From positions 63,169 through 127,168 of the forward strand of contig JBQNAI010000005.1 of the NCBI GenBank assembly GCA_052170555.1: a stretch of DNA of 64,000 bases, read 5' to 3'. This DNA comes from Bacteroidales bacterium. GTDB lineage: Bacteria; Bacteroidota; Bacteroidia; Bacteroidales; P3. Numbering within the stretch: the first letter of the stretch is position 1; each line of letters opens with the position of its first letter. This document shows positions 8,985-60,484 of the stretch, piece by piece. The notes under the pieces are model-generated. The model had not been told where the DNA came from, ran no database searches, and was given only the letters and a program-made list of their open reading frames with translations. The position numbers and the translations under genes were made by a program.

Positions 8985-9052
8985 TAAATTAATCTCACAC
9001 TTTATTTTTCCAAAGTCCCTCTTTATTTTATTAATCTCTCACTTTATTTTTA
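8985..9052 (-). repeat. intergenic M1 repeat cluster (three units, minus orientation)
   Basis: aatctcacacttta, aaagtccctctttatt and aatctctcacttta. Positions 9012-9042 are 29/31 identical to the reverse complement of 41707-41737. Confidence 0.8.
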
Positions 9053-9090
9053 TTATATGCCATCTTCAATCACATATATCACAAAACACA

Positions 9091-9121
9091 GAATAGTATC
9101 ATACTAAATACGATGCTATTC
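9091..9121 (-). terminator. hairpin terminator after the glycosyltransferase gene
   Basis: gaatagtatc / gatgctattc form a 10-bp stem (one G-U pair). On the minus strand it is followed by tgtgttttg. It lies 23 nt past the stop at 9144. Confidence 0.5.
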
Positions 9122-9143
9122 ACAAAAGTTACAGGACATATTT

Positions 9144-10157
9144 TCATTTAATATCACCTACTATCTGATGAAATAAATCTTTGTGCAGAATCTTTGAAGT
9201 TAATACCAAACTTTTTCTATAAACTTGTGAAGGATAATTTTTTACATTAGAATTTCGTTTTTGAGCAAAAGAATCTCTTAACCTCATGAATTCCCTTCTT
9301 GCTTTCAATACAGCCTTAGACTCCAATTTAGATGAAGTTAAAAGAAAAACAAATGCCGCCAATAAGTCTAAACATTTTCTTCTTCGCATAACTTTCGACA
9401 ATTCTTTCTCAGGAAGATTTTTGTATAAAAGTAATAGATTATTGCGAAAATTAAGGAAAGTCTTCTGAGGAGAAAGTTTATTCAATGTCCCTCCACCATA
9501 ATGATAAACCTTACTTGTAGGACAATACATAACTTTATATCCCATATTTTTTGCCCTCCAACAAAAATCTATCTCTTCCATATGGGCAAAAAAATCTTCA
9601 TCTAGACCATTCAATTCATGAAATATCCTACTCTTAACAAACATTGCAGCACCTGTCGCCCAAAATATTTCTCGCACATTATTATACTGACCATTATCTT
9701 TCTCTAATTTCTCAAAAATTCTTCCTGCACAAAAGGGATAACCCAAATAATCTATATACCCACCCGCTGCTCCTGCATATTCAAACTTTTCTTTATCTGT
9801 GTACGATAATAATTTAGGTTGGCAAACAGCTATCTTTTTATCTTGTTCCATCAATTCTATGACAGGAGATACCCAACCGTTAGTCACCTCCACATCGTCG
9901 TTTAATAGAATATAGTAATCAGCTGATATTTGCCTTAATGCTCTATTATATCCACCTGTAAACCCATAATTCTTATCCAAAGCGATAATTTTAACAGTAG
10001 GAAATCTCATTCTAAGAAAACTTATAGAATCATCAGTAGAACCATTATCTGCTATATATATATCGTATTCAGAAGAAAATCTCACAACGGAAGGAAGATA
10101 TTGCTCCAACAATCTCCGTCCATTCCAATTCAGTATAACAATAGCAACAGATAACAT
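9144..10157 (-). CDS. family 2 glycosyltransferase
   Basis: The N-terminus from MLSVAIVILNWNG carries the GT2 signature, followed by ADNGSTDDS and LNDDVE (DxD). I chose the start at M15 so the gene abuts the stop of the upstream gene (10159) instead of overlapping it by 41 nt. Confidence 0.85.
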   Translation of the reverse strand: MLSVAIVILNWNGRRLLEQYLPSVVRFSSEYDIYIADNGSTDDSISFLRMRFPTVKIIALDKNYGFTGGYNRALRQISADYYILLNDDVEVTNGWVSPVIELMEQDKKIAVCQPKLLSYTDKEKFEYAGAAGGYIDYLGYPFCAGRIFEKLEKDNGQYNNVREIFWATGAAMFVKSRIFHELNGLDEDFFAHMEEIDFCWRAKNMGYKVMYCPTSKVYHYGGGTLNKLSPQKTFLNFRNNLLLLYKNLPEKELSKVMRRRKCLDLLAAFVFLLTSSKLESKAVLKARREFMRLRDSFAQKRNSNVKNYPSQVYRKSLVLTSKILHKDLFHQIVGDIK

Positions 10158-10158
10158 A

Positions 10159-11667
10159 TTATTTATGTCCTCTTTCGTATTGCTTGCCCGCTTTACCAAC
10201 TACACCATAATCAAGCGTACCACGAGAAAGTGTACTCTCCCAGTACAGCTCTTGCGTCTCTCCCATAGCATTAGAATGCAATAAAAAATACTCTGCGAGA
10301 TTATCCTGTCTTGCATAAAATACGAACTTGCGATTACTTTCTCCGCGTGGTGTATGTTTATATACCCAAATCTGATAAGGGTAGTAAATAACCCCTTTAG
10401 TTTCGGAAGTATTAAGATCAGGATTCATTCTCTGTGCAAATTTATCTACATTGTTACTGCCTCCAGAAGATGCAAACTTTTCATCAATCACCTCATCAGG
10501 AACACCATATCCCAAATAAACTCGTCCCATGTCCGTATCATAACCCTTTTTAATAGGAGTAGAGTATTTTTCATTGACAAAGACAACCTGCTTAGAATAT
10601 TTTTTCCATTCTTTTTCAGGATCAATAGCATCTATTACTGAAAAAAATTGATAAATAAAATATCTATCTTGTGCTGGAGTTGAATATTTCAAATCTTTCA
10701 ATATATAACGTATCTGAATTTCCGAAGCAATTGGTCGCAATGATTTGATAGTTTCTTTCAATAAACTATCCGGAATATTATTTACAAAAGCATTTTTAGG
10801 AATATCTACATTTTCTTCTAAAACTCTCCTATCATTCTGCTTAAAGAAAGGGTAACGTTTATAGGCGTGCAAAATATTATCCCTGTCCCTCACTTCTACA
10901 GTCAAGTAATAAGACCCCTCAAGTAAACTCGCTAAATCTATTGTACCCAAATAAGAGGTTATTCTCTCTGCTTTTTGCCTTTTTATTTTTTGTAGACCAT
11001 TTATTCTAAGATTTGTATTAACGTTTTCCACAATTGTTGAAATAATATACACAGAATCAATACCAAATACTTTATCTGCATTATATACTTCTACATAATA
11101 ATTAATTACATTATGATCTTTACTAATTGAATCAAATAAATAAGGGTACATATCATACCCTCCCCTCGAATATATATTTTCTTTTGAAGTCTTTGTATAT
11201 TTATCTACTATCATTATATCCGAAAGGTTTATTTCGTTATCAGGATAAGAAATAACTATGATATCTTTGTAACTCATAGGTTGCATTGAAGAGTTGATAT
11301 CTCTAATTTCAAATATAACAATAAAGGTATCTGAAGAAAGCTTTATTCTTTGCATATCCGTCAACGAAATATTAACTAACTCATTAGAATCTATTACTTC
11401 AGGAGTTGTAATAATACGTTTATCCAAATATACTACCGAATCTGTATTGTGCATTTTATATATAAACGTTGTAAGTTCTGCTTGCTTTACATATTTGTCA
11501 GAAGAATTTTTAGTACATTTCAGAGAAGAAACATCTATAGAAGTATTTATCTCTGCATAGTCAACAGTTACCGAATGATATGTACGAAATGAATAAATAA
11601 TATTTATTTTTTGTGCATCTACCACAAAAGGTAAGATCAATAATATTGCAACAATTATTTTTTTCAT
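10159..11667 (-). CDS. GWxTD-domain secreted protein
   Basis: 502-aa ORF with signal peptide (VVDA|QK). The C-terminal segment KKGYDTDMGRVYLGYGVPDEV resembles the GWxTD motif. Confidence 0.6.
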   Translation of the reverse strand: MKKIIVAILLILPFVVDAQKINIIYSFRTYHSVTVDYAEINTSIDVSSLKCTKNSSDKYVKQAELTTFIYKMHNTDSVVYLDKRIITTPEVIDSNELVNISLTDMQRIKLSSDTFIVIFEIRDINSSMQPMSYKDIIVISYPDNEINLSDIMIVDKYTKTSKENIYSRGGYDMYPYLFDSISKDHNVINYYVEVYNADKVFGIDSVYIISTIVENVNTNLRINGLQKIKRQKAERITSYLGTIDLASLLEGSYYLTVEVRDRDNILHAYKRYPFFKQNDRRVLEENVDIPKNAFVNNIPDSLLKETIKSLRPIASEIQIRYILKDLKYSTPAQDRYFIYQFFSVIDAIDPEKEWKKYSKQVVFVNEKYSTPIKKGYDTDMGRVYLGYGVPDEVIDEKFASSGGSNNVDKFAQRMNPDLNTSETKGVIYYPYQIWVYKHTPRGESNRKFVFYARQDNLAEYFLLHSNAMGETQELYWESTLSRGTLDYGVVGKAGKQYERGHK

Positions 11668-11700
11668 TACTCTTTACTTGATTAAACTTCTAATGGTTGG

Positions 11701-11708
11701 CAAAGTTA
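11701..11708 (-). promoter_or_regulatory. -7 box TAACTTTG
   Basis: Exact TAnnTTTG on the minus strand, 33 nt upstream of the start at 11667. Confidence 0.55.
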
Positions 11709-58811: not shown

Positions 58812-58867
58812 GCATGTTGTTTCTATACATTGTTTTGTAGTTTTTACGCCGTTTTGAAAAAAAATAG

Positions 58868-58875
58868 TATCTTTG
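58868..58875 (+). promoter_or_regulatory. -7 box TATCTTTG for eno
   Basis: Exact TAnnTTTG, 46 nt upstream of the ATG at 58922. Confidence 0.55.
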
Positions 58876-58921
58876 CAATCCGTTTTAATATAACATGTTA
58901 TTAATTTAATAATTTTAGAAG

Positions 58922-60217
58922 ATGTCACAAATAATTGGAATCCATTCAAGACAAATCCTTGATTCAAGAGGAAATCCCACAATAGAGGTAGAAGTTTATA
59001 CTGAAGCAGGAGCGTTTGGTCGTGCATCAGTCCCATCGGGTGCCTCAACAGGTGTTCATGAGGCAGTAGAGTTGAGAGATGGTGACAAATCAATGTTCTT
59101 AGGTAAGGGAGTATTGAAGGCAGTCAACAATGTAAACAAGACTATTGCCGAAGAATTAAGAGGAATGAACGTTCAAGACCAAATCCTTCTTGACAAGCGA
59201 ATGATAGAATTGGATGGCACAGATAACAAAGGCAGATTAGGGGCTAATGCTATCTTGGGCATATCACTTGCTTGTGCCAAAGCAGCTGCTCAAGAAACAG
59301 GACAAGAACTGTACCGTTATATTGGAGGAGCTAATGCCTATACTCTGCCTGTCCCTATGATGAATATATTGAATGGAGGGGCACATGCTGATAATAAAAT
59401 AGACTTTCAAGAATTTATGATTATGCCTGTCGGTGCACCTTCCTTTGCTGAAGGACTTCGAATGGGTGCAGAGGTATTCCATAACTTAAAATCAGTCCTT
59501 AAAGACAAAGGTCATTCAACCAATGTCGGTGACGAGGGAGGTTTTGCTCCTAATTTAGGGTCCAATGAAGAAGCAATAGAGGTTGTTTTACAAGCGATAG
59601 AAAAAGCAGGCTACAAACCGTGGGATGATATTCGCATAGCATTAGATCCAGCTTCAAGCGAATTCTATATTCCGGAAGAAAAAGTTTATCATTTCAAGTG
59701 GTCAACAGGAGACAAACTAACTTCCTCTCAGATGGCTGACTATTGGAAGACATGGTGTGCTAAATATCCTATCATAAGTATTGAAGACGGAATGGCAGAA
59801 GACGATTGGGACGGATGGAAAGTATTGACAGATACTTTAAGCGACAAAATACAATTAGTAGGAGATGATTTGTTCGTTACAAATGTGAAAAGATTACAGA
59901 TGGGTATTGATAAAGCTGTTGCAAACTCCATACTTATCAAATTTAATCAGATAGGTACATTAACGGAAACCATCAATGCTGTTCGTCTGGCTAATAACAA
60001 TGGCTACACGGCAGTTATGAGTCATCGTTCCGGTGAAACGGAAGATACAACAATAGCGGATTTGGCGGTAGCGTTGAATACCGGTGAAATAAAAACAGGA
60101 TCTGCATCTCGTACTGATAGAATTTGCAAATACAATCAGTTGCTTCGCATAGAAGAAGCATTGGGAGAACAGGCTATATACTTAGGAGACAAGTTCTTTA
60201 AAGGGCTAAAAAGATAG
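58922..60217 (+). CDS. eno: enolase
   Basis: 431-aa ORF with [21 protein letters not shown], and [10 protein letters not shown](I)[11 protein letters not shown]. Confidence 0.97.
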
Positions 60218-60243
60218 TAATCTCTAGTATACATACGTGCATT

Positions 60244-60285
60244 GAAGATAGGGTAGCAAAAGCAAATATCCTATCTTCTTTTTTT
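60244..60285 (+). terminator. rho-independent terminator after eno
   Basis: gaagatagg (60244-60252) / cctatcttc (60270-60278) form a perfect 9-bp stem, followed by ttttttt. Confidence 0.8.
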
Positions 60286-60401
60286 CACAATTCTTTTTGT
60301 ATACATCATCATTACTAACTGCTACTTCTCTAATATATACACTTTTGCACCACAAATATTATACATTTTTTGCCATTTTAACAAAATATCGTCAATACGA
60401 T

Positions 60402-60484
60402 TTATTAAAGTGAGACATCAGTTTGATAATGTCGCACTTTAATAAATTAATGTCTCACTTTAATAAATTCTTATCCCACATCTA
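60402..60484. repeat. M1 cluster: 17-bp perfect inverted repeat plus 21-bp tandem duplication
   Basis: ttattaaagtgagacat (60402-60418) is the exact reverse complement of atgtctcactttaataa (60450-60466). atgtcgcactttaataa (60429-60445) is a direct copy 21 bp upstream with 1 mismatch. cttatcccacatct follows. Confidence 0.9.

Follow-up and report, generated by a model that had tools for sequence, protein, structure and literature searches.

The DNA analysed here is a 64-kb stretch of a Bacteroidales genome (the window), of which 54.6 kb is coding (85%) and 9.4 kb is non-coding, the latter with a G+C content of 24%. Its genes are housekeeping genes, such as efp (22496-23062), ffh, tilS, folD, and ispF, and it also holds porU, porV, and porP (secretion), feoB, lemA, parC, and genes for an ABC-F ATPase, an M13 peptidase, a hydrogenase, and enolase. 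The spacers between these genes carry a family of short repeats, here called bricks, which abut without intervening spacers in arrays of one to four units and in a strict 21-bp register. Thirteen such arrays total approximately 930 nt, or about one tenth of the non-coding DNA. An earlier examination of the same letters (the sequence-only reading) had described one brick type, the A brick, as a dispersed word and palindrome, and had missed both the 21-nt register and two further unit types, B and C.

The A brick is a 21-bp near-palindromic unit, ATTAAAGT-GNG-ACTTTAAT, with the word AAAGTG[AGT]GAC at its centre. Aligned units contain a 19-nt palindrome with 8-bp A/T arms, as had been proposed, and a 3-nt G/C centre. 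Strongly conserved G/C positions are found only at this centre, GTGNGA(C/G), with GTGAGAC, GTGGGAC, GTGCGAC, and GTGTGAG as variants of the core. The word AAAGTGDGAC occurs six times in the window against 0.41 expected from shuffles, and the TAAAG-N5-CTTTA palindrome TAAAGNNNNNCTTTA occurs four times against 0.28. The 19-mer AAATTAAAGTGAGACTTTA is present in three exact copies at 48814, 48856, and 50899, as had been reported, and in seven additional copies with at most three mismatches, where shuffles predict 0.2. All three are far above the shuffles and the family is real; each of the eleven loci first listed for it carries the word on one strand or the other.

A weight matrix for the A unit (17 nt, cut-off of at least 12 bits, trained on 17 of its hits) matched 20 intergenic sites and one coding site, which gives 21 units in the window versus 0.2 in simulations with the intergenic composition (24% G+C). 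The matches at 9011, 28176, and 39494 are independent of the training set. The 8-mer AAGTGNGA was found 14 times in the 9.4 kb of non-coding DNA and five times in the 54.6 kb of coding DNA, and the density of the word, the palindrome, and the 19-mer in non-coding DNA is approximately 100-fold that in coding DNA. The intergenic restriction that had been claimed therefore stands for the matrix-defined unit, with its single coding match, but not for the 8-mer, whose coding copies occur at about the chance rate. Overall, the comparison of intergenic, coding, and shuffled sequence showed a strong intergenic excess in the window. Two weaker copies that had been placed at 6541 and 7193 score below 8 bits and are not upheld. 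With respect to transcription, 12 A units are co-oriented and eight are anti-oriented, which is no bias.

The spacing of the bricks is constant. Repeat finding gave start-to-start spacings of 21, 21, and 42, and the autocorrelation of the non-coding DNA peaks only at lags 21 (0.351, z 4.5) and 42 (0.346, z 3.8) against 0.321 +/- 0.0065. A local lag scan revealed five loci at lag 21 and none at 19, 20, or 22, and the best rows of Tandem Repeats Finder are six period-21 arrays. With distances taken between palindrome centres, each of the nine neighbouring A-brick pairs is spaced at exactly 21 or 42 bp. The pitch is identical for ++, --, +-, and -+ neighbours, and five of the nine pairs are head-to-tail (++ or --). 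The boundaries between bricks are AT-rich and common to them (..TTAAT/AAAWT.. and ..CAGT/AAAT.., the slash marking the boundary), and within the palindromic frame direct and inverted bricks are distinguished solely by the 3-nt centre (GNG and CNC, respectively).

Other unit types share this register, and A, B, C, and D bricks abut within it. Type B, AATGTCAAGAAAGAATTT, has six copies against 0.5 expected, and type C, the palindrome TCCTTTTCAAAAAAGGA, has eight matches at six places against 0.9 expected. B and C bricks often stand in arrays with A bricks in the same 21-nt register, and their sites are 6136-6210, 17299-17316, 23128-23163, 28196-28236, and 35341-35413. The type D unit, AAAATAAAGTGCCGATTCAAT, frames two elements. 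As a dispersed family in the window, D amounts to one inverted pair, and its remaining matches are at chance level.

Arrays along the window

Most arrays lie just past stop codons, and five to seven of them begin 17-31 nt after the stop; distances to gene starts are variable. A B+B+C array in the 21-nt register lies at 6136-6210 on the minus strand, with AATGTCAAGAAAG... as its B and TCCTTTTCAAAAAAGAA as its C. Three direct A bricks (centres 8997, 9018, and 9039) with an ATGCCAT flank are found at 8985-9066, also on the minus strand, and show 85% identity to the reverse complement of 41686-41737. In the plus-strand array at 17278-17340, an A brick (17280-17296) is followed by a minus-strand B brick (17299-17316) and then by a weak unit of A/D-like type (17320-17340). 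Directly 3' of efp, 23081-23165 (plus strand) comprises an inverted A pair, which forms a hairpin followed by a T run, then B (23128-23145) and C (23147-23163). The array at 28176-28236 (plus strand) begins 19 nt past the porV stop and consists of A on the minus strand (28176-28192), C (28196-28212), and B (28219-28236). A plus-strand C-B-C array at 35341-35413 occupies the spacer of convergent genes.

In the second half of the window, 39490-39552 (plus strand) contains an inverted A pair with a perfect 12-bp stem and a weak third A brick. This array follows a 55-codon open reading frame, 39304-39471, and begins approximately 20 nt past its stop codons; the frame itself lies after feoB, has no NCBIfam match, and its product combines a hydrophobic N-terminus with a tail rich in Cys, CNCKGGSCNCSTC. 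The lemA-parC spacer holds an 84-nt element of four bricks, [D-like][A][A][D'-like], at 41678-41761 (plus strand). A second four-brick element, the palindrome [D][A][A'][D'] at 45208-45309 (plus strand), forms a 43-pair hairpin followed by a T-rich tail. At 48814-48876 (plus strand), a direct array of A, a degenerate brick, and A carries two of the three identical 19-mers and is located downstream of a conventional terminator (48715-48759). The third 19-mer is the A brick of 50886-50919 (plus strand), where it is joined to an inverted half-unit, GTCTCA, in a weak hairpin with a T-rich tail, 20 nt past the ABC-F stop. In the spacer of divergent genes at 57103-57166 (minus strand), one A brick (57146-57162) has a degenerate neighbour 21 nt away. 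The last array, 60402-60485 (plus strand), is composed of A(+), A(-), A(-), and a degenerate TTATCCCACAT unit, and forms a hairpin downstream of the enolase gene.

The window lies within a 72.9-kb Logan assembly contig of identical sequence, which extends it by 8.8 kb on one side and by 121 nt on the other; its ParC matches a protein assigned at NCBI to an uncultured Bacteroidales bacterium. The contig breaks off in brick-like sequence at both ends. One end (L025 10620-10673, 121 nt past window position 1) carries an A-like and a C brick, and at the other, the last 90 nt of L036 contain two B/C-hybrid CTTTTCAAGAAAGRAT units 42 nt apart. Assemblers break at dispersed repeats, and this may be why both ends fall there; the observation suggests that bricks break short-read assemblies. 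The added 8.8 kb has no A brick, and no transposase was found in the added sequence.

RNA folding at gene ends

Predicted folding of the arrays depends on the orientation of their bricks. Among the inverted arrays, 45205-45312 reaches -58.6 kcal/mol (z -17), 60398-60470 reaches -28.1 kcal/mol (z -8.0), 39488-39535 reaches -19.6 kcal/mol (z -7.3), and 23078-23135 reaches -18.6 kcal/mol (z -6.4); the inverted half-unit with its A brick (50880-50925) gives -11 kcal/mol (z -3.2). The direct or mixed arrays that do not fold have z values of -1.7 to +1.9, and those of the direct arrays 8985-9066, 41678-41761, and 48814-48876 are -1.4 to -1.7. Folding is confined to inverted arrays, so that the family as a whole cannot be defined by RNA structure. 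The sequence-only reading had offered an RNA structural or terminator module as one explanation, which is supported for the inverted arrays (z -3 to -17, sense strand favoured) and not for the direct ones. Its example, a terminator of efp built from the unit, agrees with the hairpin at 23078-23128, in which an inverted pair of units precedes a T run.

Strand-specific features point in the same direction. All eight hairpins just 3' of genes (five in the window and three in relatives) fold at least as stably on the sense strand as on the antisense strand, with a margin of 0.1-19 kcal/mol, and the five window hairpins contain 11 G-U pairs in sense versus two in antisense. Arrays in divergent spacers have no sense-strand folding bias. 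T-rich tails follow 23122, 45300, and 50917, and a stable hairpin with a U tract at a gene 3' end is present at 23081-23122, at 45208-45309, and weakly at 50886-50917. The hairpins at 39490 and 60402 lack a U tract, and the direct arrays also fail to show the hairpin and U-tract pattern. A consensus terminator scan did not list the brick hairpins because their stems have few G-C pairs. The hairpin copies probably serve as terminators or as 3'-protective structures.

The palindrome at 45.2 kb differs between close strains. In strain L007 (99.8% identical), two G-to-A differences, at 45281 and 45297, give perfect A-T pairing at both sites where the 102-nt palindrome otherwise has G-T. Rfam was searched across the whole window with gathering thresholds, and across 5.9-14.8 and 39-61 kb with E <=1; only chance hairpin matches were returned, plant MIR841 and Enterococcus RefA9, both on this palindrome. 

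Relatives and known repeat systems

Homology between distant spacers is not restricted to the core of the unit. The segments 9012-9063 and 41686-41737 are 85% complementary over 52 nt, and 41678-41761 and 45218-45301 match at 71% over 84 nt. In local alignments of spacers with each other, nine scores exceed the best of 900 shuffled comparisons. The shared segments extend over three or four bricks (52-84 nt) and include non-core positions. Moreover, a rare AAAGAGGGAC brick is found twice, each time after a GTGAGA brick and an (A)TG(C/G)CA flank, and the brick order recurs in a sister species (contig L011, ParC 88% identical) at 4716-4800, in a convergent spacer that is not orthologous. Multi-brick blocks have thus been copied to distant spacers.

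Comparison of orthologous spacers, which had been recommended with the first description, was informative between species. The lemA-parC spacer is 166 nt long with its array in the window, and only 18, 37, and 39 nt long, without an array, in L011, L031, and L030, respectively. In L012 the spacer is 256 nt long and contains an unrelated A7-N3-T7 array. The point of insertion is marked by a conserved CAAAATCTAA immediately ahead of the parC start, and the spacer gained its array in this lineage only, after the split from the sister species. Such insertion polymorphism was observed between species only, at this spacer, and the comparison yielded no differences among strains that are 99.5-99.9% identical. 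The spacer upstream of the TPM-domain gene has an array in the window, L009, and L011, from three different families. Downstream of the gene that follows parC (246 residues), the window (45208-45309) and L011 (13381-13466) have an orthologous outer stem around different inner bricks; on reading the alignment, the stem shows two compensatory pair changes.

Relatives with a ParC identity of 81-88% have many intergenic arrays of period 21-22 with units of their own, AATCWGCGA, GACGGTYYRAA, TTTTGYAA, and A7-N3-T7, and unrelated genomes of similar G+C content are not rich in such arrays. Examples, with TTTAYTRATCWGCGA among their units, are L009 5298-5423 and 14463-14571, L011 641-857, 7790-7957, and 13381-13466, and L012 2412-2517, 4654-4758, 9814-9901, and 15031-15120. 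Several of these arrays are enclosed by an outer inverted repeat. The sister species carry their own brick families, and intergenic arrays of 21-22 nt appear to be a trait of the whole clade. The 19-mer or its 17-mer was also found on contigs of GTDB representatives (five), IMG/VR (four), and the JGI metagenomes (seven), in a single copy per contig, and none of these contigs has a second unit. One brick of the relatives, TTTGGACGGTCTGAAA (L011 713-799 and 7797-7876, L012 4654-4758), matches the Neisseria uptake sequence GCCGTCTGAA at eight of ten positions, which is presumably a coincidence.

BrickBuilt of Porphyromonas gingivalis is the closest known system. It is an intergenic, species-specific repeat of tandem 23-nt units with dyad symmetry and has no Rfam match (PMC4596501), and the earlier statement that no described Bacteroidota element is comparable was thus too strong. 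Both systems have a Bacteroidales host, a strictly intergenic location, a range of one species, and a tandem unit roughly two turns of the helix in length (23 nt in BrickBuilt, 21 nt in the window) with dyad symmetry and long stem-loops. Both are also found near terminators and have no Rfam match and no internal transposase. In contrast to the window bricks, BrickBuilt has a leader (<=285 nt) and a tail (<=318 nt) that end in IS5-type inverted repeats, GAGACCTTTGCA. This end occurs in the window at chance level (three matches versus 3.7 expected), and an alignment of the arrays revealed no long conserved leader or tail flanks. BrickBuilt arrays contain up to 22.8 copies, all direct, whereas window arrays have one to four bricks in both orientations and of several sequence types.

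BOX elements of Streptococcus pneumoniae are modular composite repeats of the form boxA-boxB(n)-boxC (PMC3049150). They resemble the bricks in having partly complementary outer modules around inner tandem modules, as in [D][A][A'][D'] at 45208-45309 and in L009 14463-14571, and in being intergenic stem-loop elements with no dedicated transposase known. However, BOX modules are longer than 21 nt, follow the fixed order A-B-C, and have ends resembling ISSpn2; the 21-bp spacing and the free mixing of orientations are seen only in the window bricks.

The REP, BIME, and REPIN families are short palindromes tagged with GTAG or CGTC (PMC3733652). Like the bricks, REP and BIME elements are short imperfect palindromes (20-40 bp in REPs), high-copy and extragenic, often at gene 3' ends, which occur as singles, dimers, and mosaic clusters in species-specific families and have proposed roles in termination or mRNA stabilization. 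REP dimers are arranged head-to-head or tail-to-tail and rarely head-to-tail, whereas in the window head-to-tail pairs are as common as inverted ones, and the spacing is the same in every arrangement, unlike in REP families. None of the aligned window units has an unpaired GTAG or CGTC tag, and no REP-associated transposase (RAYT) was found among the genes of the 73 kb. The bricks fail the defining features of canonical REPs. They also differ from CRISPR, as had been stated, since they abut without unique spacers and number at most four per array.

Interpretation and alternatives

The family is best described, with moderate confidence, as a lineage-specific, modular, dispersed intergenic repeat of 21-bp bricks of the BOX/BrickBuilt/BIME kind, of which the A brick is one module and whose hairpin copies serve as terminators. 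It belongs to no named family; its kind is ordinary, but the exactness of the 21-bp spacing and the mixture of brick types are unusual. A REP- or MITE-like element was among the first suggestions for it, and remains the best fit with regard to the homology over 52-84 nt, the gain at lemA-parC, and the species-specific families, although the REP tag is missing and neither consistent terminal inverted repeats nor target-site duplications were seen.

A mechanism can be outlined for such a modular repeat. Arrays would arise by insertion or duplication in spacers and would persist where they are harmless, typically 17-30 nt past a stop codon. Slippage or recombination at the shared AT-rich boundaries could shuffle bricks while the register is kept. 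Flips in orientation may be inversions of the 3-nt centre within the palindromic frame during replication of a quasi-palindrome, which would leave the spacing unchanged. Inverted neighbours would give a long transcript hairpin that ends or protects the upstream mRNA, and such copies could be retained as terminators. Direct arrays, which have no RNA structure, may be neutral, decaying, or active at the DNA level.

Several observations weigh against this description. It poorly explains why several species, and several brick families that are unrelated to each other, have a pitch of exactly two helical turns, and simple transposition does not predict an equal 21-bp spacing for every combination of orientations. 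The arrays and flanks that were read show neither a consistent terminal inverted repeat nor a target-site duplication. D bricks flank 41678-41761, 45216-45299, L011 13381-13466, and L009 14463-14571, but other arrays have no such ends, and the flanks at 45208/45302 are only AATATATT and AATATTTT, AT-rich DNA with no consistent direct repeat. The available sequence contains no insertion sequence, and a Pfam search of most genes revealed no transposase, Y1 transposases included, in the 73 kb. Strains from four other samples (99.5-99.9% identical) show no array presence or absence and no copy-number differences. The terminator role is affected by three further points: the G-over-C skew of the sense strand could partly account for the G-U asymmetry, half of the arrays have no fold, and a terminator role is impossible for arrays in divergent spacers, namely 57103-57166 and several of those in relatives. 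Finally, the sequence covered is approximately 3% of a presumed 2-3 Mb genome, and the adjoining 8.8 kb is without an A brick.

Small dispersed repeats have barely been described in Bacteroidota, and BrickBuilt, the one detailed case, also has a unit of about two turns. The present data suggest that mosaics of 21-22-bp bricks fill the spacers throughout a clade of uncultured Bacteroidales from the gut or rumen, with brick sequences that are each species' own. If this is true genome-wide, the bricks could provide markers at the species or strain level for organisms known only from metagenome-assembled genomes, and would help to explain breaks in these assemblies. They would also offer a natural system to study what fixes the pitch of a repeat, be it a protein ruler, DNA geometry, or recombination at boundaries. 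The hairpin copies have a bearing on transcription termination in AT-rich Bacteroidales.

The strongest competitor is a phased protein array, an explanation we regard as unlikely. Here, each palindromic brick (TTAAAGT-N3-ACTTTAA) would bind a dimeric DNA-binding protein, and adjacent dimers would stack along the same helix face at intervals of two turns; the protein might be nucleoid-associated, transposase-derived, or a global regulator, and brick sequences would co-evolve with it in each species. The two-turn pitch across families and species is the main argument for it, and the centre-to-centre distance of 21 bp in any orientation, the palindromic frame, the even orientation with respect to transcription (12 co- and eight anti-oriented), the spacer upstream of the TPM-domain gene, which holds a different family in each of three species, and the arrays in divergent, promoter-containing spacers are all consistent with such binding. 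The flanking genes, however, are housekeeping genes with no functional connection, the distance to the gene start is not constant, and copies occur in convergent spacers (35341-35413 and L011 4716-4800). Homology extends over several bricks, including non-core positions, at least three unrelated brick sequences share an array and would not all be read by one protein, and no candidate protein was identified. Operator sites for a dimeric protein, as the sequence-only reading had also considered, are not supported by position, given the variable gene-start distances, the array in a convergent spacer, and the placement of most arrays after stops. A bolder version, which we consider slightly less likely still, is a genome-wide palindromic lattice of two-turn pitch for a lineage-specific dimeric protein, nucleoid-organizing or derived from a domesticated transposase, with protein and sites co-evolving. 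Each sister species would then have replaced the brick sequence and kept the 21-22-bp pitch, sometimes in the same spacers.

Another explanation is that the bricks are terminator or 3'-end hairpin modules that evolved in place, as the preferred stems of an AT-rich genome selected for RNA folding, without mobility. The position of five to seven arrays at 17-31 nt past a stop, the strong hairpins with their sense-strand preference, and the compensatory changes in the outer stem between the window and L011 would all follow from it. Nevertheless, it is improbable, since the direct arrays (8985-9066, 41678-41761, and 48814-48876) are unfolded (z -1.4 to -1.7), one of them, 48814-48876, sits downstream of a complete conventional terminator (48715-48759), and some arrays of the family occupy divergent spacers. 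Selection for folding in place would also not account for an identical 19-mer in three copies or for blocks of 52-84 nt common to several loci.

A DNA uptake signal for natural transformation is very unlikely. Uptake signal sequences (USS) of Pasteurellaceae and DNA uptake sequences (DUS) of Neisseria have invariant cores of 9-12 nt that are common inside genes, and their inverted pairs often double as terminators. The core AAAGTG(A/C/G)GAC does resemble the USS core AAGTGCGGT, and a short G/C-containing core in an AT-rich phased context, both orientations, and inverted pairs at gene 3' ends are shared features. On the other hand, the brick core is degenerate, only one of the 21 units lies in coding DNA although 85% of the window is coding, the units form tandem arrays that several unrelated types share, and the strict 21-bp tandem register has no counterpart among uptake sequences. 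Chance recurrence of AT-rich low-complexity words, which a G+C content of 24% might favour, is hardly credible and is refuted by the simulations (0.2 matches versus 21 observed), by arrays at lag 21 only, and by their independent recovery with Tandem Repeats Finder.

Some minor observations concern the remainder of the window. A sigma-70 promoter scan was uninformative (109 matches versus 95 expected), as Bacteroidota use a different consensus, and no tRNA or tmRNA genes were found in the window. Two regions, 5934-7274 and 12681-14759 (2.1 kb, 22-27% G+C), have no credible gene and no Rfam match. In the first of them, a 72-codon open stretch with a GTSLG motif at 6716-6931 resembles what is left of a serine hydrolase gene after decay. 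At approximately 22060-22180, genes turn from the minus to the plus strand, and the cumulative GC skew has an origin-like minimum. A replication origin near 22 kb was rejected, as DnaA boxes (TTATCCACA with at most one mismatch) number 33 versus 25 expected and are unclustered, and the skew minimum may only reflect coding-strand bias.

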